Shown here: positions 4,798 to 28,141 of the stretch, piece after piece
Numbering within the stretch: the stretch's first letter is position 1
Layout: each line of letters opens with the position of its first letter
From: a virus
DNA: 33,217 bases
Direction: 5' to 3' (one strand)
IMG/VR virus record: IMGVR_UViG_3300045988_037273
The notes under the pieces: model-generated
Databases searched by the model: none
Told to the model about the DNA's origin: nothing
Seen by the model: the letters and a program-made list of their open reading frames with translations, nothing else
Program-made: the position numbers and the translations under genes

Positions 4798-4801
4798 CAA
4801 T

Positions 4802-6409: not shown

Positions 6410-6420
6410 TAATTTGGATT

Positions 6421-8928: not shown

Positions 8929-8970
8929 ACCATTAACTCGTACAGAGATGGCAGTTTATTATATACTGCC

Positions 8971-8978
8971 TATCTTTG
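8971..8978 (+). promoter_or_regulatory. candidate -7 box (TATCTTTG) upstream of the scaffold/capsid genes
   Basis: Exact TAnnTTTG match 26 nt upstream of the ATG at 9005. Confidence 0.45.
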
Positions 8979-9004
8979 CACGTGTTACAACAAAGACAAA
9001 TTAT

Positions 9005-9976
9005 ATGAAATTTAGAAAACTTAGAATTATTCAAGCCGGGGTTACTACCAATTTCGGTACATACGAAGGCAAGGAATTTCCGTTAGTCATTACGGAGACC
9101 GCAGTTCAAAGCGTTGTAACGCTCGGCAACCTAAAGCCTATCCATTGCAGGCGCACCCATAACGGGACGGATATGCTGGACGGGTATTTAGGAAAATTCA
9201 CTAACTTCGTCTACGAAGACGGTGTAGCCTATGCCGATTTGGAATTATCCGAAGCCCTACAAGCTGCCTACCCATCGGAGGCAAAATTCATCTCCGAGAT
9301 GATAAAGAACGAACCTGATATGTTGGGCGTTTCGGTGGTGGGCGTAAACAATCAGACATTAAACGGTGATGTGCTGGACGTTACCAAATTCTTTGAATTG
9401 TATTCATGTGATTTGGTAGGGCTGCCAGCAGCCACCACAAGCTTATTTAATAATCAAAACGAAAAGAAGATGAACAAATTTTTTAGTTCTTTCGCAGAGC
9501 TATTCAAGAAGTCAAGCTTTGCGACAGAGACGGTAGAAACCGTAGACGGTGCGAGTATCACCATTGAAGCAGCAGGCGAAACAATGGCTATCGGCGACAA
9601 GGTTTTCGATAGCGAGGGCAATGCACACCCGGACGGCAAAGTAGAAGTGCAGGTTGAGGACGGTGTATTGGTTATCACCATTGCAAACGGTGTTATCGAA
9701 AGCGTAGAAGCTAAGGCAGAAGAAGAAGAAAAAGAAGAAAAAGAAGAGGTTGAAACCCCAGCCACCGCAGACGTACCCGAAGAGTTTGCAAACCGTATAG
9801 CAGCCTTGGAAACCTCGGTTACTGAACTCGCCGCAACACTGGAGGCTATGACGGCTCAATTTAACAGAGCGACAGCGAAACCCGGTGCCCCATCGGTTAA
9901 CATGCCGAAAAAGAAACAAACAAAATTGTCTAAAGAGGCTGTAGCAGAAGCAGCTAAAAGATTTTACAACAAATAA
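9005..9976 (+). CDS. prohead protease / scaffolding fusion protein
   Basis: N-terminal half has HK97-type S78-like features (THNGTDMLDGYLGKF ... DMLGVSVVGV). C-terminal half is acidic and coiled-coil (EEEEKEEKEE, ALETSVTELAATLEAM). Lies immediately upstream of the capsid gene. I moved the start from 8948 to 9005 because a promoter-like box sits inside the longer ORF. Confidence 0.5.
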   Translation: MKFRKLRIIQAGVTTNFGTYEGKEFPLVITETAVQSVVTLGNLKPIHCRRTHNGTDMLDGYLGKFTNFVYEDGVAYADLELSEALQAAYPSEAKFISEMIKNEPDMLGVSVVGVNNQTLNGDVLDVTKFFELYSCDLVGLPAATTSLFNNQNEKKMNKFFSSFAELFKKSSFATETVETVDGASITIEAAGETMAIGDKVFDSEGNAHPDGKVEVQVEDGVLVITIANGVIESVEAKAEEEEKEEKEEVETPATADVPEEFANRIAALETSVTELAATLEAMTAQFNRATAKPGAPSVNMPKKKQTKLSKEAVAEAAKRFYNK

Positions 9977-9992
9977 CTAAAAACAAAAGATT

Positions 9993-10943
9993 ATGGCTTT
10001 TACATTTACAGACCTTAACAAACTGAACCTCAACTCACTTAACGAGGTTATTTCCTTAACCGTCGGGCTGGCTGGTGAAATCTCACAAGGTATTACCGTT
10101 ATGAACGGTATTCCGAACGGTACGCCCGTTGTTTCCCTTACAGCAGCCGACAAGGCATTGCGTAAATCAGCAGGCTGTGGCAGTGAATATTTCTATAATA
10201 GCGTAACCAATAAGGTTAAGTATTACCAGCACGCACCTATCGAACTGCCTATTGAGATTTGCTTGCAAAGCTTGTGGGGTAAGATGGTCGCAAAGGGTAT
10301 CAACCTTGATGACAACTTCTCTGAAACCGAATTGGCTGGCTTTATCCAGTCCGAAGTATTGAAGGTATTGGAAGCTGACTTGCTTCGTTTGGCTTGGTTG
10401 GACGGTAACGTATCGGAAACAGCAACTGGTTACGGTATCTTCACTAACGGCGGTATCATCAAGCAGTACAAGGACAGCGCAATGACTGAAAAAGTATTGA
10501 CCCTCACCACTGACAGCGTTCTCACTGCATTGCGTGGTGCTATCGATGCACAACGCCCCGATACGCTGGATAACTCGGAATTCTTCGTTACGTCTAACGT
10601 TATGCGCTTGTACAAGAACTTGTTGCAGACACGTGATAACAGCGTAGCGCAGTCCGATATCGTAGACGGTCGCCCGGTGTATTACTTCGAGGGTTACAAG
10701 ATTAACGAATTGAGACACGTTTCTAACGCTGCAACGGCTGACGGTTTGGACACCGCGTTTATCGCGTTCACTCCGAAAGACAACATTCAGATTGCACTGG
10801 AAAGCGCCGGTACGGTTATCGCTCCGTTCATCCAGGACGCAAAGAGCCGTAACTACTACTCACAGACTTTGTTCGCGGCTGACGCCATGCTGGTAGCACC
10901 CGAGAAAATGCAGTTGTGGTTGACAGCGAAAGCAGCAGGATAA
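9993..10943 (+). CDS. major capsid protein
   Basis: 316 aa, directly downstream of the protease/scaffold gene. Has an A-rich strong-expression leader (AAAAACAAAAGATTATG) and is followed by a strong terminator. Confidence 0.7.
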   Translation: MAFTFTDLNKLNLNSLNEVISLTVGLAGEISQGITVMNGIPNGTPVVSLTAADKALRKSAGCGSEYFYNSVTNKVKYYQHAPIELPIEICLQSLWGKMVAKGINLDDNFSETELAGFIQSEVLKVLEADLLRLAWLDGNVSETATGYGIFTNGGIIKQYKDSAMTEKVLTLTTDSVLTALRGAIDAQRPDTLDNSEFFVTSNVMRLYKNLLQTRDNSVAQSDIVDGRPVYYFEGYKINELRHVSNAATADGLDTAFIAFTPKDNIQIALESAGTVIAPFIQDAKSRNYYSQTLFAADAMLVAPEKMQLWLTAKAAG

Positions 10944-10973
10944 ATAAATAAATAAATAAATCATTTACTAATT

Positions 10974-11010
10974 AAAGGGGTTGGGATATTAACCCAGCCC
11001 CCTTTTTATT
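10974..11010 (+). terminator. intrinsic terminator after the capsid gene
   Basis: AAAGGGGTTGGG / CCCAGCCCCCTTT stem, with one G-U pair and a bulge, followed by a T-run. Confidence 0.75.
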
Positions 11011-11019
11011 TCAAATAAT

Positions 11020-11553
11020 ATGGGAAGACAATGTTTAGCAAGGCTTAGTGGTAATATTACCGTAGCGTGTACGATTCCGCGGGTCGGCGTGAAAAACATA
11101 TATTTGGTACACGTCGAGGACGTTACAGGGATTACGTTCTCATCACTGAATACTTATGTTAACTCTATCACTTTTGCCCCCAGCGCTAAATCTATTTTGG
11201 TAGAGGGGTACAGGCAAAATATCCAGGTTACCGGGTCGCTCCGGGCTATGGACACTTCCGTAAAGCAGGACATTAGTGTAGTGTTTAAACTGCCGCGTAC
11301 CGGGTCTTATGTAGCGCAATCAAGGTCTCTTATTACAGGCAGGTTTTATGTCCTTGTAGAGGAGGCAAACGGCGAATATACATTTGTGGGCGCTGTCTCT
11401 CCTTTGGAGTGTTCGGGATTCGATTTTGATAGTAACGCCAACGCGGGTATGATAACAGTAACGTTAACCGCGCCCGAGGGTTCGACAGGGAATTATTTCA
11501 CTTATGCGGTCGCCGATGTAGTAGCCGCAATCAAATCAAAAGCAGGAGTTTAA
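11020..11553 (+). CDS. virion protein, paralog 1 of 3 (tail-tube-like?)
   Basis: 177 aa. Shares an N-terminal C-x3-(K/R)(L/I)...C pattern and central/C-terminal blocks with the next two ORFs. Confidence 0.35.
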   Translation: MGRQCLARLSGNITVACTIPRVGVKNIYLVHVEDVTGITFSSLNTYVNSITFAPSAKSILVEGYRQNIQVTGSLRAMDTSVKQDISVVFKLPRTGSYVAQSRSLITGRFYVLVEEANGEYTFVGAVSPLECSGFDFDSNANAGMITVTLTAPEGSTGNYFTYAVADVVAAIKSKAGV

Positions 11554-11555
11554 TT

Positions 11556-12098
11556 ATGGCATGTATTACAAAATTGGCAAACGCAATTGCCTATGATTGC
11601 GACAGTGGCACAACTGGTTTAGATAGCGCGATTATTATTAATAAAGCGGATATTGAGAGATATGTTCTCGACGCAAACGTAAAGGTAACGAGCTTGACTT
11701 TAGCCGCGGGCGCAAGTGCGTACAAGGTAGACACCGTAAAGCGCTCTACCACCGCTTCGGTGGCTTTAAAAATTAATGATGGCGCACCTAACGCATATAC
11801 TCATTCGGTTACGCTTACTATTATGGGCTTTATTGGGTCGGTGGACTATGCTAAGTTACTGGGCGCTCTTGCAAACGGTAGTTTTGTAGTGCTGGCGAAG
11901 CACCGAGGGGTCTCCCGAAATTGCGCCGTGTATGGCTTGTATTACGGGATGAGTGCTGTCTCTATAGACCGCGGTTCGCACGATAACGGGGGTTGGGTTG
12001 CCGTAAAACTTGAAACCCCCGAAAACGTTATTGGGGAGGACAGCCTATATATTGGGGATGCGGAATACGACGCCCTTTATGAGGCAGCAGTAGGGTAG
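11556..12098 (+). CDS. virion protein, paralog 2 of 3 (tail-tube-like?)
   Basis: 180 aa. The MACITKLANAIAYDC N-terminus matches the MACIGKIASSLAMMC of the next ORF. Confidence 0.35.
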   Translation: MACITKLANAIAYDCDSGTTGLDSAIIINKADIERYVLDANVKVTSLTLAAGASAYKVDTVKRSTTASVALKINDGAPNAYTHSVTLTIMGFIGSVDYAKLLGALANGSFVVLAKHRGVSRNCAVYGLYYGMSAVSIDRGSHDNGGWVAVKLETPENVIGEDSLYIGDAEYDALYEAAVG

Positions 12099-12129
12099 TA
12101 ATTAACTAAAAAAGAAAGGAAAAAATAAT

Positions 12130-12702
12130 ATGGCATGTATTGGAAAAATTGCGTCCAGCCTGGCTATGATGTGCGGCTCTCCCGCTTGGTCAGACTTAGG
12201 CAGACCCGTATCGGCAAAGGTTCTAAATGCTTCGGATATTGCGAGCTACACGGTTTCTCCCACAGGCTCTGCCACCATAACGAGGGTACCTGGGGCGCAG
12301 GGCTGGGACATGACAACCACTAACAACTCCCTGGTTGTTACGGTCGGCTTGAAGTCGCAGGACATTATGCCGGGCGCGTATGATGTAGCAATTACGTTTA
12401 AATCATTTTCGGGTACGCCCTCTCTGGTGAGTAACCCCACGCCTATGGGCGTTGTCGGTATCCTGGAGAGAGCGGAGCTTGTTTTTGCTGTAGACCACGG
12501 CGATGCGATACGCGTCTATGGTTTGGGTTTGCCCCTGGTTTGTACCGAGATTTCCGGTGATTCAAGCGCGAACGAACGCGCAACATACACGTTTGGCGTT
12601 GAAGATTGGCAAGTAGGTACTACTATCCACTATTTGACACGGGAATCGTACAAAGCGTTGAGTACACCAGAACCAGAACCAGCACCAGCACCAGGAACAT
12701 AA
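12130..12702 (+). CDS. virion protein, paralog 3 of 3, with a Pro-rich C-terminal tail
   Basis: 190 aa. N-terminus is paralogous to 11556..12098. Ends in PEPEPAPAPGT, encoded by a 6-nt CCAGNA tandem. Confidence 0.35.
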   Translation: MACIGKIASSLAMMCGSPAWSDLGRPVSAKVLNASDIASYTVSPTGSATITRVPGAQGWDMTTTNNSLVVTVGLKSQDIMPGAYDVAITFKSFSGTPSLVSNPTPMGVVGILERAELVFAVDHGDAIRVYGLGLPLVCTEISGDSSANERATYTFGVEDWQVGTTIHYLTRESYKALSTPEPEPAPAPGT

Positions 12703-12717
12703 TAAATCAAAAAGAAA

Positions 12718-13074
12718 ATGGCAGAAAAATTAACTAATACTACGGAGCAGGGCAAAAGCACTGCACCCGTTGTTGTTGAACCGAAGGTTGCAACATTACA
12801 GGAGAAGTTGGACGCGTATTTTGCGATGACAGGTCTAAAACTTGACCCGAATTGCCACATGGATATGGAATATTTATCTTTGTGGTACGAAACGAAGTAT
12901 CTGACAAAGGTAGTTTACAGATGGGCGATGAAACCCGGGGCGCGTATCGTGCATTACGTGGACGGCGTTATCTATAAGAGTGCGAACATGACTGACAAAA
13001 TCGCGGAACGCCTTATGAATGAAAACCCTGCTTATGCGGAATGCTTCGTAGAAATCAATAAAGAGGAGGTTTAA
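12718..13074 (+). CDS. hypothetical protein
   Basis: 118-aa ORF with an A-rich leader. Confidence 0.7.
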   Translation: MAEKLTNTTEQGKSTAPVVVEPKVATLQEKLDAYFAMTGLKLDPNCHMDMEYLSLWYETKYLTKVVYRWAMKPGARIVHYVDGVIYKSANMTDKIAERLMNENPAYAECFVEINKEEV

Positions 13075-13076
13075 AA

Positions 13077-14237
13077 ATGATAGGTTACAGACGTTTCGCG
13101 CTTGTTGTCGAAAAGGCGCTTAAGTTGTCCGCTAATACGGGCGATAAGATTATTAACTACGGAGATGGCAACTTATATCCGCAGGAAATAGCCGAGCTAA
13201 TATACGCTTCAAAGACAGCCACAGCCGCAGTTGAGAAAATGACCGAGAACATTATCTGCGAGGGGTTCAAAAACAAGGACTTCGCTGCGATAACAAACGG
13301 GAACGGCTGTAACATGGACGACGTTTTAGAGGCTACGGCAAACGATGTCGCACGTTTTAGGGGCTGGGCTTGGATAGTACAGTATGGGCTGACACCCGAA
13401 GGCTACAAGCCCCGAAACGTGTATAACGTTCCGTTTGAATATGTCCGTGCCGAGATGAACGACAACTATTTGAAAGACCCGGCGATAAAGAGATGGCGCG
13501 TTTTCAATAACTGGGACAGACAGAACGTCAAGGCAACAAGCAGCGCGCAGAACTCCACGGTATACCCGACATATGACCCGGAAAACTTCGCTTCAGAGGT
13601 TGAGGAATGCGGCGGTATCGAGAACCACAAAGGGCAACTATTATACGTGAACCTTGGTACAACGCGCCCGTATCCCCTTAGCACGTTCCATTCGGTACGT
13701 AACGAGATGGGCGCAGAGGACAAGAACGGCAAGTATGTTAACCGTACTTTGGGCAGGGGCTTCCACATGTGTAGTATCGTGTCGCACGGTGATTTCGAGA
13801 CCGAGCAGGCACAGCAGGAGTTCAGAGATACATTAGCCGATATGATGGGTAGCGAGAACGCCGGCTCCGTGCTTACTGTAAGAGACGAGAACGTAGCCAC
13901 GGACAAACCATTTATCCGGGTTGACCAGTTGGGCAGCCCGATAGATAGGGAGCTGTACAAGGCTTATGTGGAACCCCTTAGAAAGGATATCGCGATAGCG
14001 GCATATAACATTCCGTTACCCCTTATTGACAGTTCGCTGATGACCTACTCAAACGCTTCGGGCGAGGTTATAAAGGAGCTGCAAAAGGTCTATCGCAATA
14101 GCTTGCAAAAGATACGCCAGCGCATCTCGCGCGAGTTGTACCAAGTGTTCGGGGTTGACCCGTCAATAACAGAAATTAATAATAAATTTGAGGAAGAAGA
14201 TGGCATACCCGATAGCGTTGTTCCGCCAGTTGTTTGA
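13077..14237 (+). CDS. portal-like protein
   Basis: 386 aa. The N-terminal segment YGDGNLYPQEIAELIYASKTATAAVEKMTENIICEGF resembles conserved portal N-terminal blocks. Its position is unusual, far from terL. Confidence 0.5.
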   Translation: MIGYRRFALVVEKALKLSANTGDKIINYGDGNLYPQEIAELIYASKTATAAVEKMTENIICEGFKNKDFAAITNGNGCNMDDVLEATANDVARFRGWAWIVQYGLTPEGYKPRNVYNVPFEYVRAEMNDNYLKDPAIKRWRVFNNWDRQNVKATSSAQNSTVYPTYDPENFASEVEECGGIENHKGQLLYVNLGTTRPYPLSTFHSVRNEMGAEDKNGKYVNRTLGRGFHMCSIVSHGDFETEQAQQEFRDTLADMMGSENAGSVLTVRDENVATDKPFIRVDQLGSPIDRELYKAYVEPLRKDIAIAAYNIPLPLIDSSLMTYSNASGEVIKELQKVYRNSLQKIRQRISRELYQVFGVDPSITEINNKFEEEDGIPDSVVPPVV

Positions 14238-14631
14238 GATAGCGACGGACGTTAAAGACAACAAAATAGAAAAAGCATTCTTTGAGGCAGACCTACTCGA
14301 TATATTGCCGCAGATTGACAGCATGTATGAGGCTGTTCCGGGGCAATATATCCCGGACGGGTCTAACTTCGCAGGACTTGAAAAGGTTATTTGCTACTAC
14401 GCGTTCGCGCGGTATTTGCAGATAGCAGACCAAAACAGTACGAGCACGGGCATGAAGATTCAGACCTATGGCGGCTCGGTAGTCGTTCCAGATACAAGCA
14501 AGGTTAAAAGGTTTGAAGCCGAACGGGGCAAAGCAGACCTTTTCATAGAACCGTTGATTTGCCGAATGAAGGCGGACGGGTTTATAAAGACATGTACAGT
14601 ATCGAACACCCGTATAGGGTTAGTCAAGTGA
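14200..14631 (+). CDS. hypothetical protein (virion completion?)
   Basis: The ORF-track start at 14188 is a TTG. The first ATG is at 14200. Confidence 0.65.
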   Translation: MAYPIALFRQLFEIATDVKDNKIEKAFFEADLLDILPQIDSMYEAVPGQYIPDGSNFAGLEKVICYYAFARYLQIADQNSTSTGMKIQTYGGSVVVPDTSKVKRFEAERGKADLFIEPLICRMKADGFIKTCTVSNTRIGLVK

Positions 14632-15107
14632 TAGAACAATTAGAGACCTATTTCCGCACGTTTTTTGCTGTGACCGTTCTGGCAGTAGTTACGGGCATAC
14701 GGGACTTTATATTTTTAGTAATTATCGTTACCGCGTTGGACTGGCTGGTAGGTTATTTGGCAGACCGGGCGAAAAGAAAGCCCTACAAGCACAAAAAGAC
14801 TATGCAGGCGGTTAAGGAGCTGTTTTTAACCAGTGCGATTCTTTTCTTTGTAGCACTAACATGTGATATGTTGGAGCCTGAGATAGATTATCAGCTTTTA
14901 GTTAAGGTACTCACGGGTATATTCCTTATTATATACGCGCGTAACATAACAAGAAACCTTAGGGTAGTACAGCCGGGAAATGAATTCGTGAAGGTGCTAA
15001 ACAGCATAGCGAATAGCAAGTATTTCCAGCTTAAGAGAAAGATTAGGGACGGCGAATTTGAAATACCCTTAGAAGAAAAGGAGAAAGAAGATGGCGAACA
15101 GCAGTAA
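14592..15107 (+). CDS. holin (Phage_holin_4-like multi-TM protein)
   Basis: Three or four hydrophobic helices and an LDWLVGYLA motif. Lies directly upstream of the endolysin and overlaps it. The start is uncertain: TTG 14559, ATG 14592, or GTG 14628, the last overlapping the upstream stop as GTGA. Confidence 0.6.
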   Translation: MYSIEHPYRVSQVIEQLETYFRTFFAVTVLAVVTGIRDFIFLVIIVTALDWLVGYLADRAKRKPYKHKKTMQAVKELFLTSAILFFVALTCDMLEPEIDYQLLVKVLTGIFLIIYARNITRNLRVVQPGNEFVKVLNSIANSKYFQLKRKIRDGEFEIPLEEKEKEDGEQQ

Positions 15108-15606
15108 ATTAGTACCGTTCATCCTACAGTGGGAAGGCGGTTTCGTTAACGACCCGGACGACCTGGGGGGTGCAACAAACAAAGGAATCACCATAGGCAC
15201 ATTCACCGAATACAAGAAGCGGAAGGGGCAAAAAGCCCCGACCGTTGACGACTTGAAAAACATATCCGATGCAGAATGGCACGATGTATTCAAGTCCCTG
15301 TACTGGGATAGGTGGAAAGCCGATGAGATTAAAAGCCAGTCGGTAGCCAATATCTTGGTTGATTGGGTTTGGGCTTCGGGTTCGCACGGTATAAAGCGCC
15401 CACAACGTCTTTTGGGCGTGAAGGCGGACGGTATCGTAGGCAAACAGACCATTGCAGCCGTTAACGCTATGGACGCGGCTACGCTCTTTAAAATGATTAA
15501 AGACGATAGAGCAAAGTTCATCGACGAGATATGCAAGGCGAGACCTAAAAACGAGAAATACCGCAAGGGGTGGATGAACCGTATTAATGCGATACGCTAT
15601 GAATAA
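15091..15606 (+). CDS. endolysin, GH108 N-acetylmuramidase with a PG_binding_3-like C-terminal domain
   Basis: ILQWEGGFVNDPDDLGGATNKGIT is the GH108 hallmark. The C-terminal part has GVKADGIVGKQTIAAVN. Confidence 0.9.
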   Translation: MANSSKLVPFILQWEGGFVNDPDDLGGATNKGITIGTFTEYKKRKGQKAPTVDDLKNISDAEWHDVFKSLYWDRWKADEIKSQSVANILVDWVWASGSHGIKRPQRLLGVKADGIVGKQTIAAVNAMDAATLFKMIKDDRAKFIDEICKARPKNEKYRKGWMNRINAIRYE

Positions 15607-16177
15607 ACTGCAAAAGATAATCATAGGCTTTGCAGTCCTTATGGTGCTGTTTGGTGCGGTAACCAAGATGGTAGACACCATAAGGAAGCAAAGAGCCGAA
15701 ATAGGACGTTTGGAGCGTAACGTTGAGGCGCTGAACGACGTGCAAATAGAGTACAAAACCAAGCTCGGAGACGCAGCAGTGAAGCGTAAGGCTTTAGAGA
15801 TGTCGCACAAGGAGCTAAAGAAAACGAACGCAGACCTATATAAAGAGGTGGACGCGCTTAACGTTCGGGTGAAAGACGCTTTATCCGCAACCCGTACCGT
15901 TACCAAGACCGTAATAAAGGAGGTAGTACGTACCGATACCGTAGCCGGGGAGCTTATAGCCGAATACCGGGACGCATGGAACACGATACAGGCAAGGGCT
16001 AAACGGGATAGCACGGAATTAAGCTACCAAGGCAGGGACACGATAACGGGTGTTATCACGGTCCGGAAGAAAAGATTCTTGTTTTTCAGATGGGGGGTCA
16101 AGGCTATAGAGCATGACATATCAAACAAAAACCCCAAATCAAAGATAGATATAGACATAGCTGTAAAGCTAAAATAA
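15587..16177 (+). CDS. i-spanin-like lysis accessory protein
   Basis: N-terminal TM helix (IIIGFAVLMVLFGAV) followed by a coiled-coil. It is the last gene of the lysis cassette. An alternative ATG lies at 15599. Confidence 0.45.
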   Translation: MRYAMNKLQKIIIGFAVLMVLFGAVTKMVDTIRKQRAEIGRLERNVEALNDVQIEYKTKLGDAAVKRKALEMSHKELKKTNADLYKEVDALNVRVKDALSATRTVTKTVIKEVVRTDTVAGELIAEYRDAWNTIQARAKRDSTELSYQGRDTITGVITVRKKRFLFFRWGVKAIEHDISNKNPKSKIDIDIAVKLK

Positions 16178-16182
16178 TCAGG

Positions 16183-16217
16183 AAATGGAGGGCTGTTAAC
16201 AGTTCTCCATTTTTTGT
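16183..16217 (+). terminator. intrinsic terminator ending the late module
   Basis: AAATGGAG / CTCCATTT stem enclosing the CTGTTAACAG palindrome, followed by TTTTTT. Confidence 0.8.
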
Positions 16218-16230
16218 TAACATTCTTTAG

Positions 16231-16497
16231 ACACAGCCTGCACAGTAGAAAAGTAGGTCTGTGCAGGTCTCTGTGCAGTCCTACTATCTATATATCAACT
16301 ACTTATATATAATTGCACAGTAAACACAGTAAAAAGGGGTTAAAACATTATTCTGGAGAAAATACCATTTACCACTATAGAACGGACTGTAAAAACCGCT
16401 ATATTCTATATTAAAGTTTAGAAATTTAGGTGTGTGTCTGTGCTGTGCAGGATAAGACACTGATAAATAGCACTTTAGCTCGCACGCACTGTTCATT
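16231..16497. repeat. structured non-coding element, copy A (TGCACAG/CTGTGCA dyads)
   Basis: Aligns by eye with 32785-33042. Shared blocks: CACAGC(C)TGCACAGTA, CTGTGCAGGT, CTGTGCAGTC, CACAGTAAAAAG-GGGT-AAAACATTATT, TTCTATATTAAAGTTTAGAAA, GTCTGTG-CTGTGCAGG and GCACG-A-TGTTCA. Confidence 0.85.
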
Positions 16498-16541
16498 TAC
16501 ATCTTTTCACTTTTGATTAAGGTTTATTAGCACAAAAAGAG

Positions 16542-16587
16542 ATACAACCTACCATTATTTGCCGTATATTTGCAATGTCAAAAGGAA
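16542..16587 (+). promoter_or_regulatory. class II promoter cassette (-7 box TATATTTG at 16565-16572)
   Basis: ATACAACCTA...TTATTTGCCGTATATTTGCAATGTCAAAAGGAAA is nearly identical to 25987-26033. Confidence 0.6.
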
Positions 16588-16771
16588 ACAAGGCTGTTAT
16601 TTACCGAAACTAATAACACGATACCCGAAAGGGAAGGTTTGAAAAGTGAAAGGGATTCAAACGCCGAATAGTTTTTTAAAAAGAAAAGAGGTCACCAGGA
16701 CATTAAACTGGAAATAACCGTGAACAAGTAAGAACGTAGATTTGTTATTAACGTATAAAACGAAGCGAAGT

Positions 16772-16996
16772 ATGAAAGCAATTGATTTAATTTTCAGAGA
16801 AACAATGACCGAGGGTCAATTCGAGATGAAGAGCCACGTATTAGTATTTATAGACGAGGCAGGCAACGGGTATGGCGATACCTTTTCAGAGGTACACCAT
16901 AACGGGAGATTTGAAGCATACCAATACAACGGTATGGGGTATGGGTACATGCAGGTCCTTATGGAAGCTATTTTCTTAAATAAGGTTAACAAGTGA
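16772..16996 (+). CDS. hypothetical early protein
   Basis: The ORF-track start at 16742 is a TTG. The first ATG is at 16772 (74 aa). Confidence 0.6.
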   Translation: MKAIDLIFRETMTEGQFEMKSHVLVFIDEAGNGYGDTFSEVHHNGRFEAYQYNGMGYGYMQVLMEAIFLNKVNK

Positions 16997-17040
16997 ACCG
17001 ACGTATTTGCAAAAGCGTTATATTTGCATCAACAATTTAA
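16985..17040 (+). promoter_or_regulatory. class I promoter cassette (GTTAAC 16985-16990; -7 box TATATTTG 17019-17026)
   Basis: GCGTTATATTTGCATCAACAATTTAAAAA is shared with the cassettes at 19142 and 30099. Confidence 0.65.
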
Positions 17041-17052
17041 AAAGATAAAGTT

Positions 17053-17328
17053 ATGGAAGAGCAGCAGTTTATCATCGATGAAGTAAAAAAGCATTTGCAG
17101 GCAAGCGCGAGAAAGAACAAATACCAAGTTATTGACGCAGTGCAGGAAATGCCGACGTTTGAAGGGTTTATACTCCCTTACTACGTATCTACAATGGAAG
17201 GAACGAGATACCCCGTGAATGTTGAGGATATGTATATCTACTGCGATGAGTGGGACGGGTTCTATAATGAGACGGTGACCAAGGTTGCACAAGCCATTTT
17301 GGAAGCCGAACAAATCAAAGAAGCATAA
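17053..17328 (+). CDS. hypothetical small acidic early protein
   Basis: 91 aa, with 17 D/E against 8 K/R by my count. First gene after a class I promoter. Confidence 0.7.
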   Translation: MEEQQFIIDEVKKHLQASARKNKYQVIDAVQEMPTFEGFILPYYVSTMEGTRYPVNVEDMYIYCDEWDGFYNETVTKVAQAILEAEQIKEA

Positions 17329-17361
17329 ATTAGTTATTCACCATATAAAAAGGAAAGGAAA

Positions 17362-17952
17362 ATGAAGATTACACCGTTAACAATCGATTTTGACGTTACA
17401 AACGAGCAAGAAGTAGCATTTGTAAATGAGCTTATGAACCGTCTATTTGGTAGTGTGCCCCTTAAGGCTATGTCAGCGCCTACAGAAAGCCCCGTAAACA
17501 GTACAAGCGTACCGACGTTTAGCGAACCTACACGGACCGCCGCACCCGTTCAAGAACTTAAGAAGGAAGCAAATCCCGAAGCCACAGCGGTAGCTATTGC
17601 AGAGGAAACAATTACCGAAGCTATCGCGGAAGTTAAAAAGGAAATTGGAAAACCCGTAACTGTCGGAAAGCCCGTAAAGCCAAAGACTGTAAAGGAAGCC
17701 CCGCAAGCGACGATTGAACCCGAACCCGTACAAGCTCCCACCGAAGAGGAGAAAGTCCCGGAAAAAGCCGAAAACAAGCCCCTAACGGCAAAAGATATGC
17801 AGGCGTTCATGATTGACTTAATGAAATCCGGGAAAATCACCCGTCCGCAATTAACGGATATTATGTTGGAATTCGGCGGCGCATCTCTTATGCGTATCAA
17901 GCCCGAGAAGTACGAGCTGCTGAAACAGCGTATCGAAACCTATAACGATTAA
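17362..17952 (+). CDS. hypothetical protein with a Pro/Glu/Lys-rich linker
   Basis: 196 aa: a short N-terminal domain, a low-complexity linker and a folded-looking C-terminal domain. Confidence 0.7.
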   Translation: MKITPLTIDFDVTNEQEVAFVNELMNRLFGSVPLKAMSAPTESPVNSTSVPTFSEPTRTAAPVQELKKEANPEATAVAIAEETITEAIAEVKKEIGKPVTVGKPVKPKTVKEAPQATIEPEPVQAPTEEEKVPEKAENKPLTAKDMQAFMIDLMKSGKITRPQLTDIMLEFGGASLMRIKPEKYELLKQRIETYND

Positions 17953-17957
17953 AAAGA

Positions 17958-19136
17958 ATGAAAGTACAGGTAGACCACACAAGCAGGGCACATGCCCTGC
18001 TTTCCCCGAGCAGCTCGCACCGCTGGCTTAACTGCACACCGTCCGCACGGTTAGAAGAACCATACGAAAGCACAAGTAGCGCAGCATCAGAAGAAGGAAC
18101 TGTAGCACATGAGTTAGCAGAATACGCCATAGAAAAGTATTTAGCCGGGGAATACCTACCATTATTGGACGAATTGCCCGTACCCGACGAGATACGTAAC
18201 AACAAATATTATAGTTCGGAAATGGAACACTACGTAACGGATTACGTGTGCTATGTGTGCGACATATACGAACTAGAGGAAGGCGCCGAAATGAGTATAG
18301 AACGAAAGTTCGATTTAACGGCATACGTTCCCGAGTGTTTCGGCAGCTGTGACTGTGATATAGTGGGCGAGAAGGTTCTAAACATCATAGACCTAAAATA
18401 CGGAAAGGGCGTACAAGTGGACGCCGATGGGAATAGTCAGTTAATGATGTACGCTATAGGGGTGCTTGACTCCCTGGAACCACACCACCGCGCGAAGATT
18501 GAAAAAGTACGTATGCACATCGCACAAGTACGGTTAGGCAATTACTCGGTATCCGAGATGTCCGCACGGGACTTGACCCACTGGGCAATACACGTACTTC
18601 GTCCCACCGCTGAAAAGGCATGGGCAGGACAAGGGGAAACCAAAGTAGGCAGCCATTGTAAGTTCTGCAAGTTCAAAGCGCAATGCAGGGCACAGAAAGA
18701 GGCTTTAGTTAGCGAGTTCGAGACACACGGGGACACCAAGGCGCTAACGCTTGACGAGATAGGCGATATACTAAGCAAGTCCGATATGTTCACCGACTGG
18801 CTGGTCTCGGTTAAGACTTTCGCAATGCAAGCCGCTACACGGGGCGAAAAGGTCAAGGGGTGGAAACTCGTAGAGGGTAGGTCGGTACGTGTCATAAACG
18901 ACACGGAAACAGCCATAGAACGCCTAAAAGCTTTAGGTTTCTCAACCGAGGACATAACTAACAGCAAATTGAAAGGTATCGGAGACCTTGAACGCCTGGT
19001 TGGTAAAAAAACGCTTGCAGCAACACTTGACGGGCTGATAGTCAAGCCGCAAGGACTGCCGACATTAGCCCCGGAAAGCGATAAGCGCGAGGAATTAAGC
19101 CCTACTATTGATGACTTCGAGGAATTAAATTCATAA
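17958..19136 (+). CDS. DUF2800-family PD-(D/E)XK (Cas4-like) nuclease
   Basis: N-terminal HALLSPSSSHRWLNCTPSARLEE signature, a D...DLKYGKG nuclease core and a C-terminal Cys cluster CKFCKFKAQC. Confidence 0.85.
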   Translation: MKVQVDHTSRAHALLSPSSSHRWLNCTPSARLEEPYESTSSAASEEGTVAHELAEYAIEKYLAGEYLPLLDELPVPDEIRNNKYYSSEMEHYVTDYVCYVCDIYELEEGAEMSIERKFDLTAYVPECFGSCDCDIVGEKVLNIIDLKYGKGVQVDADGNSQLMMYAIGVLDSLEPHHRAKIEKVRMHIAQVRLGNYSVSEMSARDLTHWAIHVLRPTAEKAWAGQGETKVGSHCKFCKFKAQCRAQKEALVSEFETHGDTKALTLDEIGDILSKSDMFTDWLVSVKTFAMQAATRGEKVKGWKLVEGRSVRVINDTETAIERLKALGFSTEDITNSKLKGIGDLERLVGKKTLAATLDGLIVKPQGLPTLAPESDKREELSPTIDDFEELNS

Positions 19137-19141
19137 AAGAA

Positions 19142-19201
19142 GTTAACGAAAGAACCAACTTATCAGATAAAGCGTTATACTTGCATTATCAATTTAAAAA
19201 C
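19142..19201 (+). promoter_or_regulatory. class I promoter cassette (GTTAAC 19142-19147; -7 box TATACTTG 19176-19183)
   Basis: GTTAACGAAAGAACCAAC...AAAGCGTTATACTTGCATTATCAATTTAAAAAC. Confidence 0.6.
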
Positions 19202-19209
19202 AAAACGAT

Positions 19210-19512
19210 ATGAAAAGTAACAGCGGTATTTTAACGGAGAAAGAGATTCAAGAAAGAACCAAGTTTTGGAATAAAAAGCAATTCCGTACCTGGAGCAAGG
19301 AAGAACTCGAAAGAACCTCTAAAGACATGCAAAATCTTTTGGTAGCTATAAAGGGGTTCAGCGTGGACGAGATTAAGGCTATTAGAAAGTCAGACCGGTA
19401 TGGCTTTAGAGGGAAAAATGACCCGAAGTATATCATATGGCTGGCATACCGAAGCGAATTAGATTATGCTATTTCAATAGCGCCAAAAACTTTTAAAGTT
19501 AAACAAGGTTAA
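19210..19512 (+). CDS. hypothetical protein
   Basis: 100-aa basic ORF downstream of a promoter cassette. Confidence 0.7.
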   Translation: MKSNSGILTEKEIQERTKFWNKKQFRTWSKEELERTSKDMQNLLVAIKGFSVDEIKAIRKSDRYGFRGKNDPKYIIWLAYRSELDYAISIAPKTFKVKQG

Positions 19513-19567
19513 CAGAATAAACAACTTATTGATTTATTTGTTATCTTTGCGGCATCAAATTAAAAAC
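19508..19567 (+). promoter_or_regulatory. diverged class I promoter cassette (GTTAAC 19508-19513; -7 box TATCTTTG 19542-19549)
   Basis: GTTAACAGAATAAACAAC...GTTATCTTTGCGGCATCAAATTAAAAAC. Confidence 0.55.
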
Positions 19568-19612
19568 GGAACGCCCGAACCGATTAGAGGGCAAAAACAA
19601 AAATTGTAGAAT

Positions 19613-20152
19613 ATGAAAGCAATGATTAAGAACGTGAGATTGAGCTATGTTAGATTGTTTGAAGCGCAACAAGTCAACGGACAAGGAGAAGCAAGTTACA
19701 GTGTATGCTTATTGATTCCGAAGGATAGCCCGGAAGTCCCAAAGATTAGGGAAGCTATAGAACAAGAATTCAGGGGACTGAAATCCCGTTACCCGAAACT
19801 GAACGGCAAGGACCCGAAAGTATGGACTAACCCGTTACGGGATGGGGATGCAGAGAAAGACGGTGCGGAGTATCAAGGTTGCTACTTTATCAACGCAAAG
19901 CGTAAAGAGAAGCAAGGCGCGCCTATCGTAATTGACGGCAGAAAACAGTATATCACAGACCCGAACGAGGTTTATAGCGGTTCTTGGGGCAATGTAGCCG
20001 TATCATTTTACCCTTATGAGTTTACCGGGAAGTACGGTATTGGTGTAGGTTTGAACGGTGTGCAGAAGACGAGAGACGACGAAAGACTGGACGGCGGTAC
20101 AAGTATTGATGACTTCGATTTTGAAGACGAGAACGACGACCTTTTCAACTAA
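19613..20152 (+). CDS. DUF2815-family single-stranded DNA-binding protein (T7 gp2.5-like)
   Basis: N-terminal VRLSYVRLFE...YSVCLLIPK pattern and an acidic C-terminal tail DDFDFEDENDDLFN. Confidence 0.85.
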   Translation: MKAMIKNVRLSYVRLFEAQQVNGQGEASYSVCLLIPKDSPEVPKIREAIEQEFRGLKSRYPKLNGKDPKVWTNPLRDGDAEKDGAEYQGCYFINAKRKEKQGAPIVIDGRKQYITDPNEVYSGSWGNVAVSFYPYEFTGKYGIGVGLNGVQKTRDDERLDGGTSIDDFDFEDENDDLFN

Positions 20153-20177
20153 TAACTGAATTAGACAAATCAATAAC

Positions 20178-20198
20178 TGGGCGGTGTAATACCGCCCA
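20178..20198 (+). terminator. stem-loop after the SSB gene (weak terminator)
   Basis: TGGGCGGT-GTAAT-ACCGCCCA, an 8-bp stem followed by an A-run rather than a T-run. Confidence 0.35.
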
Positions 20199-20214
20199 AA
20201 AATAAAAAGCAAAA

Positions 20215-21315
20215 ATGGGAAAGTACGATTCGTACGTAAACGAAGAAGGTGTTAGAATTTCAAAGGTGACGGGAAAACCGTTGAAAAAATATAATAAGGT
20301 AAACAAGGCATACTGGGCAGCCCGTGAGGGCAAAGCAGTTGTGGGCGTACAACAACCTACAGTAGAGGTAGACCCGTTGATAGAGGAGCTTAAAAGCTAT
20401 TACAACGAGGAAGAGCTAAAGGGTATTATCGGTTTGAAGAAGGACGCGCCGCCCGTCGAACTGGTAGACATCACACCGAAGAAAAAGACATCGCTCGATG
20501 AGGGAAACACTGGTTTTCTTATTGCATCAGACTGGCATGCCGACGAAGTAGTAAAAGCCTCTACAGTATTGGGCAAAAACGAGTATAACAAGGATATCGC
20601 AGAAAAGCGTATCACTAATTTCTTTGCTAATGCCGCGTACATGATAAAGAAAAAGCCGGTAGATAACTTGGTTATCAGTTTGATTGGCGATATGATAGGC
20701 GGCTACATACACCCCGAACTCGAGCAAACGAATAGCATGTCGCCGATGCGCGGTGTTAACTTCGTTAAGAACCTAATTATTTCCGGGCTTAAATATCTGC
20801 ACGACCAGCTACCCGAGGTTAACAAAATTACTGTCATCGGTATTTGCGGAAACCATTCAAGAACTACAAAAAAGATGCAGTTTAGCAACGGTTTCGAGAT
20901 GAATTATGAGTATTTCATGTACAAGGACATCGAACGCGCCCTGACACTTATGGGGCTTACCAAATTTAGCTTTATCATTCCGGAAAGTGAATTTGCTTAT
21001 ATCGACGTGTACGGAAAGAAAGTGTTATTTGCACACGGGCATCAATTCCGCACGGCTGGCGGTATCGGAGGTATTTACCCGTCGATGATGAGGTGGTACG
21101 CAAAGATGAACCAAACGATACATATTGATAAAGCCTTTATCGGACATTATCACCAAATGGTATATACCAAAGAGGTTTGTGTTAACGGCTCTCTGAAAGG
21201 TTTCGACGCGTTCGCAATGGGGCACGGACTGGCATACGAAGAACCACAGCAAACATACGTAATTCTTAACGAAAAACGAGGATTTATTTTCTACTCACCT
21301 ATTTTTGCAGATTAA
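20215..21315 (+). CDS. calcineurin-like metallophosphoesterase
   Basis: Ordered motifs DWHAD, GDMIGG, GNHSR, AHGHQ and GHYHQ. Confidence 0.8.
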   Translation: MGKYDSYVNEEGVRISKVTGKPLKKYNKVNKAYWAAREGKAVVGVQQPTVEVDPLIEELKSYYNEEELKGIIGLKKDAPPVELVDITPKKKTSLDEGNTGFLIASDWHADEVVKASTVLGKNEYNKDIAEKRITNFFANAAYMIKKKPVDNLVISLIGDMIGGYIHPELEQTNSMSPMRGVNFVKNLIISGLKYLHDQLPEVNKITVIGICGNHSRTTKKMQFSNGFEMNYEYFMYKDIERALTLMGLTKFSFIIPESEFAYIDVYGKKVLFAHGHQFRTAGGIGGIYPSMMRWYAKMNQTIHIDKAFIGHYHQMVYTKEVCVNGSLKGFDAFAMGHGLAYEEPQQTYVILNEKRGFIFYSPIFAD

Positions 21316-21318
21316 GTT

Positions 21319-21360
21319 AAAAGGCTACTGATTGTTAAATAAATGCAATTAGTAGCCTTT
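21319..21360 (+). terminator. intrinsic terminator
   Basis: AAAAGGCTACTGATTG / CAATTAGTAGCCTTT stem with one G-U pair, followed by T-rich sequence. Confidence 0.7.
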
Positions 21361-21386
21361 CTTCTTGTTTATTAAAAACATTGCCG

Positions 21387-21394
21387 TACCTTTG
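21387..21394 (+). promoter_or_regulatory. candidate -7 box (TACCTTTG) upstream of the DNA polymerase gene
   Basis: Exact TAnnTTTG match 36 nt upstream of the ATG at 21431, with a CAATTAAAAC leader. Confidence 0.5.
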
Positions 21395-21430
21395 CCGTTA
21401 TAACAGTATTAACAATTAAAACAATGAGTT

Positions 21431-23449
21431 ATGAGACATCTGTTTATTGACTTTGAAACGTATTCCGAAACGGACATCGAAAAAGCTGGTAACTATAAAT
21501 ACTGTGAGGACGAGAATTTTGAAATACTCCTTTGCGGCTACATGTGGGACACCGATACGGACGTTACAATAATCGACCTAACAAAGCCCGGAGGGCTGGG
21601 TGAGTTCAACGAGTTGTTCACGTATGTACAGAACAACGGGGACGTTGTGATAGTAGCACACAACGCTACTTTTGAGCGTATCTGTCTGCGCGAGTACGGG
21701 TTTGACATCAACCCTATGCGTTTTTTCTGTACCGCTAACATGTCATTGTATTGCGGTATGCCTGCATCACTGGAAGCGGTATCTAATATTCTAAATCTCG
21801 ATGATAAGAAGAAGGGCACGGGAAAGAACCTTATCCGTTATTTTTCAATTCCGTGCAAGCCTACCAAAACAAACGGAGGTCGCACACGTAATTTGCCGGA
21901 ACACGCCCCCGAGGACTGGGAGGAGTTTATAGATTACCTACGTTATGATGTGCTTTCAGAAAAGGAAATATTCGGTAAGTTGTCCCGGTTTGAATTCCCG
22001 GAAGAAGAGCAGCGCATCTATGCGGCAGACCAGCGTATAAACGATTATGGCATACTGGCAGACCTCGAGCTGGCACACGCCGCGCAGGATATGGACGAAG
22101 AATATAAAGCACGCCTAACCGAAAGAGCCAAAAAAGAATTTGGACTAAGCTCCTTAAAGTCCATGCCGCAGCTTAAGGGCTTCATTGAAGAGCGTACGGG
22201 CGTGGTTATTGATTCACTCAATAAGAATAGCATCGGGGAAGTTATAAAGACCGTGACGAGCCTTAAAAACATTACCGATGAGGATAAGCAAGCAGTGTTA
22301 GACGTTATAGACCTACGCAGGGAGATAGGCAAAACATCGAACGCCAAGTACACCGCTATACTTGCAAGCGCGGGGCGGGGTAACCGTATCAGAGGTTTGT
22401 TCCGTTACTACGGTGCGAACCGTACCGGGCGATGGGCTGGGCGGTTGGTTCAACTACAGAACCTGCCGCAGAACCATATCGAGGACTTGGACGGGGCACG
22501 AGAACTGGCAAAGATGCACGATTTGGATATGATGGAAGTTATATATGACAAGCCTACACACATACTATCGCAGCTTATACGTACCGCGTTTATTGCCCCC
22601 GAAGGGTACACGTTCGCTGTAGCTGACTTCTCGGCGATTGAGGCACGTGTAATTGCCTGGGTTGCTAACGAACAATGGCGTTTGGACTTATTTAACGACC
22701 CGAAGGCTGATATATATTGCGCTTCTGCGTCTAAAATGTTCGGTGTCCCGGTGCACAAGGGCGACGACTTAAGGCAGCGCGGTAAGGTAGCGGAGCTTGC
22801 ACTCGGATACGGCGGCGGCGTCAACGCCCTTACCACAATGGATATTAAAAAAGCGTTAACAGACGAAGAAAAACCTCAAATACTGTCAAAATGGAGAGAA
22901 GCTAATAAAAAAATAGTATCTTTGTGGCGTTCGTTAGAAGACAGCGCAAAAAGATGTATCGGAACAAGGCGTGAACAAGTCTATAAGATAGACGATGTTT
23001 CAAGTATTATATTTCGATATGAGAGCGGCGCAATGACTATTGAGCTACCAAGCGGTAGAAAGCTGTTCTACCCGTCTGCAAGAATGGGAAAACGTACTAT
23101 CGAGGGCGTTAACGGCTCGTTTGAGGTTGAGGCTATATCCTACATGGGTCAAGACCAAACCTCCGGGAAATGGGTTAAGCTAAACACATACGGCGGCAAG
23201 TTAACCGAGAACGTTGTGCAGGCGATAGCCCGTGACTTGCTGGCGAATGCGATTTTTAAGGTATTTGATTTAGGTTTTAATATCGTGCTGCATGTTCACG
23301 ATGAGATAGCCGCCGAGATACCGAAAGGCGGAAACGAAGAAAGGACGCTGCAAATAATGAGCGATGCCATGTGCAGCGCCCCGAGTTGGGCAAAGGGCAT
23401 ACCATTAAGAGCAGCGGGCTATATTACTGAATATTACAAAAAAGATTAA
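21431..23449 (+). CDS. family A DNA polymerase with a 3'-5' exonuclease domain
   Basis: Exo motifs FIDFETYS, VAHNATFE and YLRYDV. Pol motif A is ADFSAIEARV, motif B is RQRGKVAELALGYGGG and motif C is HVHDE. Confidence 0.95.
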   Translation: MRHLFIDFETYSETDIEKAGNYKYCEDENFEILLCGYMWDTDTDVTIIDLTKPGGLGEFNELFTYVQNNGDVVIVAHNATFERICLREYGFDINPMRFFCTANMSLYCGMPASLEAVSNILNLDDKKKGTGKNLIRYFSIPCKPTKTNGGRTRNLPEHAPEDWEEFIDYLRYDVLSEKEIFGKLSRFEFPEEEQRIYAADQRINDYGILADLELAHAAQDMDEEYKARLTERAKKEFGLSSLKSMPQLKGFIEERTGVVIDSLNKNSIGEVIKTVTSLKNITDEDKQAVLDVIDLRREIGKTSNAKYTAILASAGRGNRIRGLFRYYGANRTGRWAGRLVQLQNLPQNHIEDLDGARELAKMHDLDMMEVIYDKPTHILSQLIRTAFIAPEGYTFAVADFSAIEARVIAWVANEQWRLDLFNDPKADIYCASASKMFGVPVHKGDDLRQRGKVAELALGYGGGVNALTTMDIKKALTDEEKPQILSKWREANKKIVSLWRSLEDSAKRCIGTRREQVYKIDDVSSIIFRYESGAMTIELPSGRKLFYPSARMGKRTIEGVNGSFEVEAISYMGQDQTSGKWVKLNTYGGKLTENVVQAIARDLLANAIFKVFDLGFNIVLHVHDEIAAEIPKGGNEERTLQIMSDAMCSAPSWAKGIPLRAAGYITEYYKKD

Positions 23450-23453
23450 ATTT

Positions 23454-25892: not shown

Positions 25893-25976
25893 TAACAGAG
25901 GGGGCATAAAAGCCTCCCCCCAAATGTTAACTAACTATTAACAGAATAACTGAATGAGATTTATTTCTTAAATGGT

Positions 25977-26052
25977 GTTAACGGAATATACAACCTATTG
26001 TTATTTGCCGTATATTTGTAATGTCAAAAGGAAATAATAACAATTTAAAAAC
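25977..26052 (+). promoter_or_regulatory. class II promoter cassette (GTTAAC 25977-25982; -7 box TATATTTG 26011-26018)
   Basis: Nearly identical to 16542-16587. It ends in the class I leader CAATTTAAAAAC. Confidence 0.6.
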
Positions 26053-26060
26053 AAAAGATT

Positions 26061-26471: not shown

Positions 26472-26511
26472 AGAAGCGTTTTTGTATATACAATTTTAAA
26501 AGGAAAAAATT

Positions 26512-26715
26512 ATGAAAAGCGGAAATTTTATTGAACTGGCGTTCGTAGTTAAAGGTGAGCTGCAAGTAGAGTATATCAACGTTGAACACGTATCGCGTAT
26601 TATGTACGTAGATGGCAAACCGTTTATTGGTATGCTGGGGCAAACCTACACGCGCCAACTTACAGAAACGAGTATGCAAGAACTAACGGAGTGTATTAAC
26701 TTGGAAAACAATTGA
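26512..26715 (+). CDS. hypothetical protein
   Basis: 67-aa ORF with an A-rich leader. Confidence 0.6.
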   Translation: MKSGNFIELAFVVKGELQVEYINVEHVSRIMYVDGKPFIGMLGQTYTRQLTETSMQELTECINLENN

Positions 26716-26721
26716 ATTAAA

Positions 26722-28118: not shown

Positions 28119-28141
28119 CAGCAAATCAAAAAACAGAAATC

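Follow-up and report, generated by a model that had tools for sequence, protein, structure and literature searches.

The Rep proteins of the staphylococcal pathogenicity islands (SaPIs) are self-loading initiator-helicases whose C-terminal winged helix binds iterons, and the SaPI origin is made up of 6–12 iterons divided by an AT-rich region in the centre, two or more of them flanking it on either side and pointing in opposite directions; in SaPI5, a primase is fused to the Rep (PMC9371898). In the Bacillus phage SPP1, two origins of similar organisation, oriL and oriR, each with repeats and an AT-rich unwinding element, lie far apart on the circularised genome and are bound by the same phage initiator. 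One of them is situated in a long intergenic stretch flanked by transcription signals, and oriR has been proposed to be a barrier to the replication fork, which would bring about the change to concatemer synthesis (theta-to-sigma) (PMC6316719). Here we describe an arrangement that recalls both systems in the IMG/VR virus record IMGVR_UViG_3300045988_037273 (33,217 nucleotides, the whole of which is referred to as the window), a phage genome in which two homologous copies of a noncoding element, A and B, occupy the gaps between the early and the late operon. Each element is probably a replication origin of the iteron type, or at a minimum a landing pad of the origin type for an initiator, the proposed initiator being an 812-aa primase-helicase that the phage encodes. 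Elements of this type are familiar; the novelty lies in their duplication at a distance from the gene, an arrangement conserved across a broad family, and in a series of matched pairs of repeat and wing.

The likeness to the SaPIs concerns both the protein and the DNA. The phage primase-helicase is a homologue of Rep1 (7PDS), according to the predicted structure with the C-terminal winged helix included, and it is fused to a primase, as is PriRep5 of SaPI5; each copy of the element has 6–7 sites around an AT tract of 28–29 bp (83–86% A+T), with at least two on each side in opposed orientation; and the sequence of the repeat depends on the lineage, matching a C-terminal domain that is lineage-specific as well. 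The two systems differ in that a SaPI has one origin directly after rep, whereas the phage has two complete copies some 7 kb off, between operons, and in that the phage repeats measure 7–8 nt, compared with 5–6 nt in the SaPIs, and are accompanied by approximately 100 bp of conserved non-iteron sequence. They also differ in the kind of replicon, which is a satellite island in the one case and, in the other, a lytic siphophage of Bacteroides that encodes a DNA polymerase I of its own. With SPP1, the phage shares its nature as a lytic siphophage and the presence of two distant regions of similar repeat and AT-rich organisation in one genome. In SPP1, however, the origins are bound by a separate protein, gp38, which cooperates with a loader and a helicase of the DnaB type, in place of the predicted self-loading superfamily 3 (SF3) primase-helicase found here, and oriL lies inside gene 38, with the two origins about 13 kb apart in 44 kb.

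The alpha protein of the satellite phage P4, which combines primase, helicase and DNA-binding functions, reads the same short repeat at ori and at crr, two separated cis regions that are structurally different and are both needed in cis. One multidomain protein, two separated cis regions and a small circular genome are common to P4 and the present phage; ori and crr are, however, unlike each other, whereas the phage copies are full duplicates. No structure of P4 alpha was found among the top 50 Foldseek hits for the model of the primase-helicase.

Two homologous elements between the operons

The window is a circularly permuted phage genome with every long open reading frame (ORF) on the plus strand. 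Its bases 1–38 repeat bases 33180–33217, and this terminal repeat of 38 bases bears out the circle size of 33179 bp that had been given in an earlier reading of the sequence alone (the sequence-only reading). The window is 88–90% identical, over more than 90% of its length, to lytic siphophages of Bacteroides uniformis and B. xylanisolvens, the close relatives being BU2-1, EMB1/2, BU730P1, BU183P1/2, BU241P1/2, C2_18_80S2P, BU1-1, BU3-1, BU2-2 and BX788P2.

The sequence-only reading had proposed that two regions of this genome are homologues in direct orientation. Alignment with MAFFT, blastn (E = 2e-31) and a formal local alignment all agree with this, the last with 192 of 248 ungapped columns identical (77%; A 16232–16495, B 32787–33037) and a score of 91. 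In the shuffled-sequence control that the same reading had named, carried out with 500 dinucleotide shuffles, the scores stayed far below that value (mean 10.7, standard deviation (sd) 1.4, maximum 16). The MAFFT alignment contains several indels, one of them a gap of 10 nt; together with the finding that the only ORF of at least 60 aa lies at 16299–16496 on the minus strand of copy A, with none in copy B, this led to the rejection of a protein-coding reading.

Two complete copies of the element are thus placed in the terminator-to-promoter gaps between the early and late operons, each of them preceded by a strong terminator and followed by a TAnnTTTG box (Table 1). This shared context had been recognised before, and it was confirmed by the direct folding of both terminators and by the positions of the boxes; a sigma-70 promoter/terminator scan had missed both terminators because their stems and loops exceed the limits of the scan. 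The spacing from copy to copy is 16554 bp and the other arc measures 16625 bp, so that the copies do lie roughly opposite each other, as had been stated, although the half-genome spacing proves to be approximate only and is conserved no more than roughly, the early arc making up 49–55% of the genome in 10 genomes. Copies that occupy both inter-operon gaps are for that reason roughly opposite on the circle, and because these gaps are the two module boundaries, the near-half-genome spacing is not counted here as functional evidence.

Iterons, AT tracts and scaffold

The core of the similarity between A and B, which the sequence-only reading did not mention, is the 8-mer CTGTGCAG (reverse complement CTGCACAG), which occurs 8 times in the window, 4 times in each copy and nowhere else, against 0.36 occurrences expected. 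When one mismatch is allowed, each copy has 6 sites and the genome has 19 further ones, all scattered singly and with no other cluster; the count of 6–7 repeats of the CTGTGCAG type in each copy includes such one-mismatch sites and CACAG half-sites. From left to right, both copies consist of one or two minus-strand sites, a 13-nt spacer, two plus-strand sites 12 bp apart, the AT tract, a minus-strand site and a half-site 11–12 bp apart, approximately 100 bp of conserved non-repeat sequence, and one or two plus-strand sites, giving in both the same order of minus, plus, plus, AT tract, minus, minus and, at a distance, plus. On either side of the AT tract, the two nearest sites face inward, and the outlying repeats of each copy are located at the outer left end and about 110–125 bp to the right.

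The AT-rich tracts, already delimited in the earlier reading, were found with the high A+T content expected from it (Table 1). In a ranking of all 40-bp windows of the genome by duplex stability, the one at 16284 is the 8th least stable (−41.6 kcal/mol, compared with a mean of −55.3 and an sd of 4.4) and the one at 32932, in the scaffold and second AT-rich block of copy B, is the 2nd least stable (−39.4 kcal/mol), which places the AT blocks of the elements at about 3–3.6 sd off the mean. The scaffold that follows in copy A contains long runs that do not vary among 26 copies of A and B, also where the iterons have been switched (see below). A non-iteron block within it, approximately AAAA.GG.TA.AAC..TTATT.GG.GAAAA, follows the AT tract (16330–16366 and 32883–32916 in the window) and recurs in the elements of the distant loci L086, L088, L089 and L039, whatever their repeat; it might be a host-factor site or a priming site. 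A scan of viral contigs with a 16-nt scaffold motif returned mostly chance matches in unrelated contigs and was set aside.

Table 1. Features of the window that bear on the duplicated element, in the order of their coordinates
Feature	Position	Strand	Remarks
Late operon (structural and lysis)	133–16177	+	ends in a strong hairpin terminator
Intrinsic terminator hairpin, end of late operon, upstream of copy A	16179–16216	+	−22.2 kcal/mol, z −6.5, then U run
Copy A of the element, proposed origin A	16231–16497	n/a	aligns with copy B
Copy A iteron CTGCACAG	16238–16245	−	exact match; CACAG half-site before it at 16232–16236
Copy A, two direct iterons CTGTGCAG	16259–16278	+	16259–16266 and 16271–16278, 12 bp start to start, facing the AT tract
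Copy A AT-rich tract, candidate DNA unwinding element	16285–16312		86% A+T
Copy A iteron TTGCACAG and CACAG half-site	16313–16329	−	16313 to 16325, 12 bp; facing back to the AT tract
Copy A conserved non-iteron scaffold	16330–16426		TAAAAAGGGGTTAAAACATTATTCTGGAGAAAATA, then second AT-rich block ...CTATATTAAAGTTTAGAAA
Copy A distal overlapping iterons CTGTGCTG and CTGTGCAG	16438–16450	+	
TAnnTTTG box TATATTTG, first early promoter, downstream of copy A	16565–16572	+	
Early operon (replication)	16742–32605	+	ends in a strong hairpin terminator
Five early promoter regions	16968–17059, 19125–19216, 25960–26051, 28057–28148, 30082–30173		
812-aa primase-helicase gene, proposed initiator	23454–25892	+	Pfam, PHROG, PDB, AF2/Foldseek
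Coding region of the C-terminal winged-helix domain (about aa 703–812)	25560–25889	+	secondary structure of the model
Recognition helix; wing; hypervariable stretch (winged-helix domain of the primase-helicase)	aa 772–782; aa 788–808; aa 789–799		from the model
Intrinsic terminator hairpin, end of early operon, upstream of copy B	32696–32744	+	−27.0 kcal/mol, z −7.6, then U run
Copy B iterons ATGCACAG and CTGCACAG	32784–32799	−	
Copy B of the element, proposed origin B	32785–33042	n/a	aligns with copy A
Copy B, two direct iterons CTGTGCAG	32813–32832	+	32813–32820 and 32825–32832
Copy B AT-rich tract	32838–32866		83% A+T
Copy B iteron ATGCACAG and CACAG half-site	32867–32882	−	
Copy B conserved non-iteron scaffold and second AT-rich block	32883–32971		
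Copy B distal half-site CTGTG and iteron CTGTGCAG	32975–32988	+	
TAnnTTTG box TACCTTTG, late-operon promoter, downstream of copy B	33122–33129	+	

The putative initiator

The first 469 residues of the 812-aa primase-helicase fall into PHROG primase and helicase families, residues 481–698 form a VapE-type SF3 helicase (Pfam PF05272, E 4e-80), and the C-terminal 110 residues are without a family assignment. In a hidden Markov model (HMM) search, a profile built from four orthologues matched PDB entry 7PDS, the complex of SaPI1 Rep1 with double-stranded DNA, over aa 388–740 (E 6e-99), and an AlphaFold2 (AF2) model of aa 470–812, with a predicted local distance difference test (pLDDT) score of 85.8, was aligned by Foldseek with the same structure over 348 columns, the C-terminal domain included, with a template modelling (TM) score of 0.85, a root-mean-square deviation of 3.2 Å and approximately 36% identity. 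Residues 755–808 are predicted to adopt a helix-helix-wing fold (pLDDT of the block about 85–94). Variability within the protein is greatest in the C-terminal domain, which shows 30–35% identity to that of L086, compared with about 80–90% for most of the remainder.

No recognisable DNA-binding family was detected in 17 small or unassigned proteins, nine early ones having been compared with Pfam and PHROG and the others with Pfam only, and neither a DnaB-type helicase nor a loader was seen among the 20 of the window's proteins that were scanned or in the annotations of the relatives. The helicases found among the scanned proteins are the VapE-type primase-helicase and an SNF2 helicase only. The phage also encodes an Enc34/DUF2815-type single-stranded DNA-binding protein and, as judged from the annotation of relatives, a Cas4-like exonuclease and a VRR-NUC nuclease, the latter without a Pfam match here.

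Co-variation of the repeats with the C-terminal domain of the primase-helicase

In BU183P1 (L004) and in L075, all repeat positions of both copies carry GACCAG in place of GCACAG (TGCACAG elsewhere), the paired minus-strand sites to the right of the AT tract of copy A changing together with the remaining repeats, and the scaffold between the repeats remains alignable. Residues common to these two switched phages and absent from 13 unswitched genomes were sought in 19 proteins. The primase-helicase has 9 such switch-specific columns, 8 of them at aa 677–794, and a 100-aa protein has a single one, at an already variable site, with none in the other 17 of the 19, including every gene located between the elements and the primase-helicase gene. 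Because these intervening genes are without switch-specific residues, the hitch-hiking of one recombination block is inadequate as an explanation.

A table of 49 C-terminal domains places the hypervariable stretch at aa 789–799, that is, in the predicted wing, and the residues at positions 793–794 follow the type of the repeat: they are N-G or K-A in most loci with TGCACAG, D/E-A in all 7 loci with TACACAG, and G-R in all 4 loci with GACCAG. Phages of the same host can differ in their repeat, as is the case for BU183P1 and BU241P1, both of which grow on B. uniformis; the repeat type therefore varies within one host species, which argues that the specificity, and hence the reader, is encoded by the phage.

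Conservation and lineage-specific repeats

The sequence-only reading had called for a check on related phages, and each of the 13 GenBank relatives has a counterpart of copy A and one of copy B at the corresponding positions, with further copies in approximately 20 IMG/VR contigs. Copy A is unannotated in 11 of the 13 relatives, and copy B is without an underlying feature in 9; no origin is annotated among the retrieved annotations or among the features that BLAST reported under its matches, and a literature search found no paper on origins or iterons in these Bacteroides phages. The earlier statement that no annotated feature type explains the element does not hold, since rep_origin fits and is merely unannotated in the relatives. 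When 26 copies are aligned, the repeats and the AT tract prove to be invariant or almost so, as do long blocks of the scaffold. The left half of copy A, with the spacer and the AT tract, is in some relatives of the copy B type (L005, 22037–22326; L001, 14411–14700; L033, 2373–2662), a pattern that indicates an exchange of sequence, either from copy to copy or between phages.

The two large intergenic gaps are also found in more distant relatives that share the gene order, and in the Phocaeicola phage BV739P1 both gaps share a 273-nt element (81% identity) of the same design, with the repeat CTGTTCC(A/G)G. Self-BLAST, tried as a way of finding such pairs in distant relatives, disclosed them in some loci only, being swamped by repeated promoter regions, and it was outperformed by a scan for 8-mers confined to two clusters, applied to 80 loci that had been collected around the primase-helicase gene. 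Most loci that span both positions, from several lineages, have a lineage-specific repeat in two clusters that lie 13–17 kb apart and flank the replication module. The repeat is CTGTGCAG in the clade of the window, CTGTGCCAC in L086, L090 and L102, CTGTGACAA in L088, TGTTACAA in L087 and L089, TGTTCC(A/G), also written CTGTTCCRG, in L078 and BV739P1, and TTGTTTAC in relatives whose initiators are about 41% identical; the more distant relatives thus keep the two-cluster layout with other repeats, namely CTGTGCCAC, TGTGACAA, TGTTCCRG or TTGTTTAC. A TGT stretch, which is CTGT in the Bacteroides-phage clades, is common to most of the lineage repeats, and they differ otherwise, as is expected of a homologous DNA-binding domain with drifting specificity. 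The elements of L089 (3460–3900 and 19300–19880) contain both GTTACA and GTGACA motifs, which may represent two site types or a longer composite site, and in L039 (BV739P1) the 8-mer GCAGAAGC is present 13 times at the ends of the record (8–305 and 36050–36167), which form one region on the circle.

A model of initiation at the duplicated element

In the model that we propose, the C-terminal winged-helix domain of the primase-helicase, with its recognition helix and wing, would read the repeats, and the protein would then assemble on both flanks of the AT tract and melt it. The primase-helicase would subsequently load itself as the replicative helicase and prime through its own N-terminal primase, following which the adjacent DNA polymerase I would extend the primers. 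Physical binding, melting and the use of either copy as a start site are inferred from the homology with Rep1 and from the co-variation. The idea of a duplicated origin with iterons and an AT-rich tract was one of several put forward in the sequence-only reading, and it is the one favoured by the oppositely oriented repeats, by the homology with Rep1 and by the co-variation of repeat and winged helix.

One of the two copies may act as an auxiliary site or a fork barrier instead of a second start site. A more specific idea, which we consider somewhat unlikely, is that the two copies constitute a coupled pair and not two redundant origins. In one version of it, one copy would initiate, and the initiator bound at the roughly opposite copy would stall the fork and force recombination-driven concatemer synthesis, as has been suggested for oriR of SPP1; in another, the initiator-bound copies would synapse, thereby licensing or limiting firing. 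If the copies were coupled in this way, their placement at 49–55% of the circle would be selected, and would not be an accident of module size, despite a divergence of the initiators to 41% identity within the family.

It has to be noted that several points weigh against the interpretation of the elements as origins. The copies lie approximately 7 kb upstream and approximately 7 kb downstream of the primase-helicase gene, in contrast to the position of the SaPI origin, and the gap directly after this gene (25893–26060) contains no repeats. The low stability of the AT tracts is not unique among the 40-mers of the genome, and the conserved non-iteron sequence of about 100 bp in each copy lies outside what an iteron origin explains. 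The GC skew is positive throughout the whole genome and carries no information on the origin, because all genes are on one strand. As for the co-variation, the mapping of wing to repeat is many-to-one, TGCACAG being found with both N-G and K-A wings, and all GACCAG loci may go back to one and the same switch, in which case the co-variation would rest on few independent events; moreover, the comparison of switched and unswitched phages left out two small genes (30167–30415 and 30959–31309) that are missing from L075. A second comparison, of L088 and L093 with L087 and L089, was rejected, as it gave 7 iteron-concordant columns against 6 for a noise partition, and L089 carries both motif types; column 794 recurs in this quartet. 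Lastly, the origin function is deduced here from sequence and predicted structure.

Alternative explanations

The primase-helicase could bind the repeats and the elements could nevertheless be mainly regulatory or architectural, timing transcription, or limiting initiation elsewhere by handcuffing or looping. Handcuffing of iterons is a known control mechanism in iteron plasmids, each copy precedes the first promoter box of an operon by 120–140 bp, and the co-variation identifies only the binder and not the effect of its binding. Such a role as the main function is nonetheless unlikely in our view, given that the genome has no other repeat cluster or comparable element that could be the true origin, that repeats facing inward around an AT tract are the origin layout of the homologous SaPI Rep, and that the repeats do not overlap the promoter boxes; the paired operator or enhancer regions envisaged in the sequence-only reading are possible only as a secondary effect of the binding of the same protein. 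Alternatively, the repeats could serve as operators to which some other small early protein, as yet unrecognised, binds in order to coordinate the early and late units, with the link to the primase-helicase being coincidental. A DNA-binding protein could indeed hide among nine small early proteins without a Pfam assignment, 8 of which are also without a PHROG match (the 248-aa protein matches only a PHROG of unknown function), or in the two small genes outside the switch comparison, and the elements do stand at the starts of both operons. This explanation appears highly doubtful, however, when it is considered that the 17 proteins free of switch-specific residues include the products of the two genes directly downstream of copy A, that the only other match is the one variable column of the 100-aa protein, and that the switch- and type-specific residues of the primase-helicase are situated in the predicted DNA-reading wing and helix of a homologue of an iteron binder.

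The proposals that the element works as RNA, either as a structured noncoding RNA gene or as a cis-acting read-through or antitermination RNA, draw on inverted repeats that can be drawn as hairpins and on the iteron switch, which gives apparent compensatory changes at 5 predicted pairs. They did not fare well: no Rfam family matched at E <= 1 under permissive thresholds, and the RNAalifold consensus of 26 copies reaches −11.5 kcal/mol over 306 columns with pairs between repeat and repeat only, whereas repeats in direct orientation, which cannot all pair, switch too. The elements of different lineages differ only at the repeats, a strong terminator precedes each element, and no TAnnTTTG box is present within either of them on either strand, all of which leaves a function as RNA with scant probability. 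The small terminase gene is located about 300 bp downstream of copy B, a position that would suit a packaging site (pac/cos), but copy A is far from the terminase genes, and a 35-nt tandem repeat between copy B and terS is a more obvious packaging candidate. Site-specific recombination, for its part, would have to do without an integrase or recombinase, none of which is found in the annotations of the relatives or among the proteins scanned, and direct repeats, if recombined, would give two circles; next to no probability is therefore assigned to packaging or recombination sites.

Neighbouring features

The five early promoter regions listed in Table 1, each approximately 90 nt long, have in common a TAnnTTTG box and, upstream, a GTTAAC...GAACCAAC block, which suggests a common regulator of the early promoters. 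The 50-nt promoter region after copy A (16542–16591) is 90% identical to 25988–26037, downstream of the primase-helicase gene. The 35-nt unit GAATAGTCCGACTAGTCCGAACCGTCCCGATACCG forms approximately 2.6 tandem repeats (33151–33217 and 1–55) in the stretch that separates the late promoter box from the small terminase gene, and these may be a packaging or terminase-binding site. The 204-aa ORF that adjoins copy B (31991–32605) has a weak, sub-threshold match to a C5-methylase and is found, among six relatives, only in BU241P1 and, in part, in C2_18_80S2P; it looks like an accessory gene inserted beside copy B. In the late operon, three adjacent genes for proteins of 177, 180 and 190 aa (11020–12702) show 46–76% identity among relatives, compared with more than 90% for their neighbours, and constitute a hypervariable patch within the structural module.

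Significance

The finding provides a testable origin annotation for a widespread family of siphophages of gut Bacteroidales, with isolates on B. uniformis and B. xylanisolvens and relatives on B. salyersiae, Phocaeicola and Parabacteroides, and it does so for the two longest intergenic regions of their records, which are almost unannotated (entirely so for copy A in 11 of 13). The repeats and the winged-helix residues form a natural matched series, with at least three types in one clade and five or more across the family, that could help to decipher the reading of DNA by Rep-type initiators. An initiator together with its own origin is, in addition, a candidate from which replicons derived from phages, or engineered phages, might be developed for Bacteroides. 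Finally, the two-copy layout makes it possible to test directly, in a culturable system, why a second origin would be retained by a small phage.

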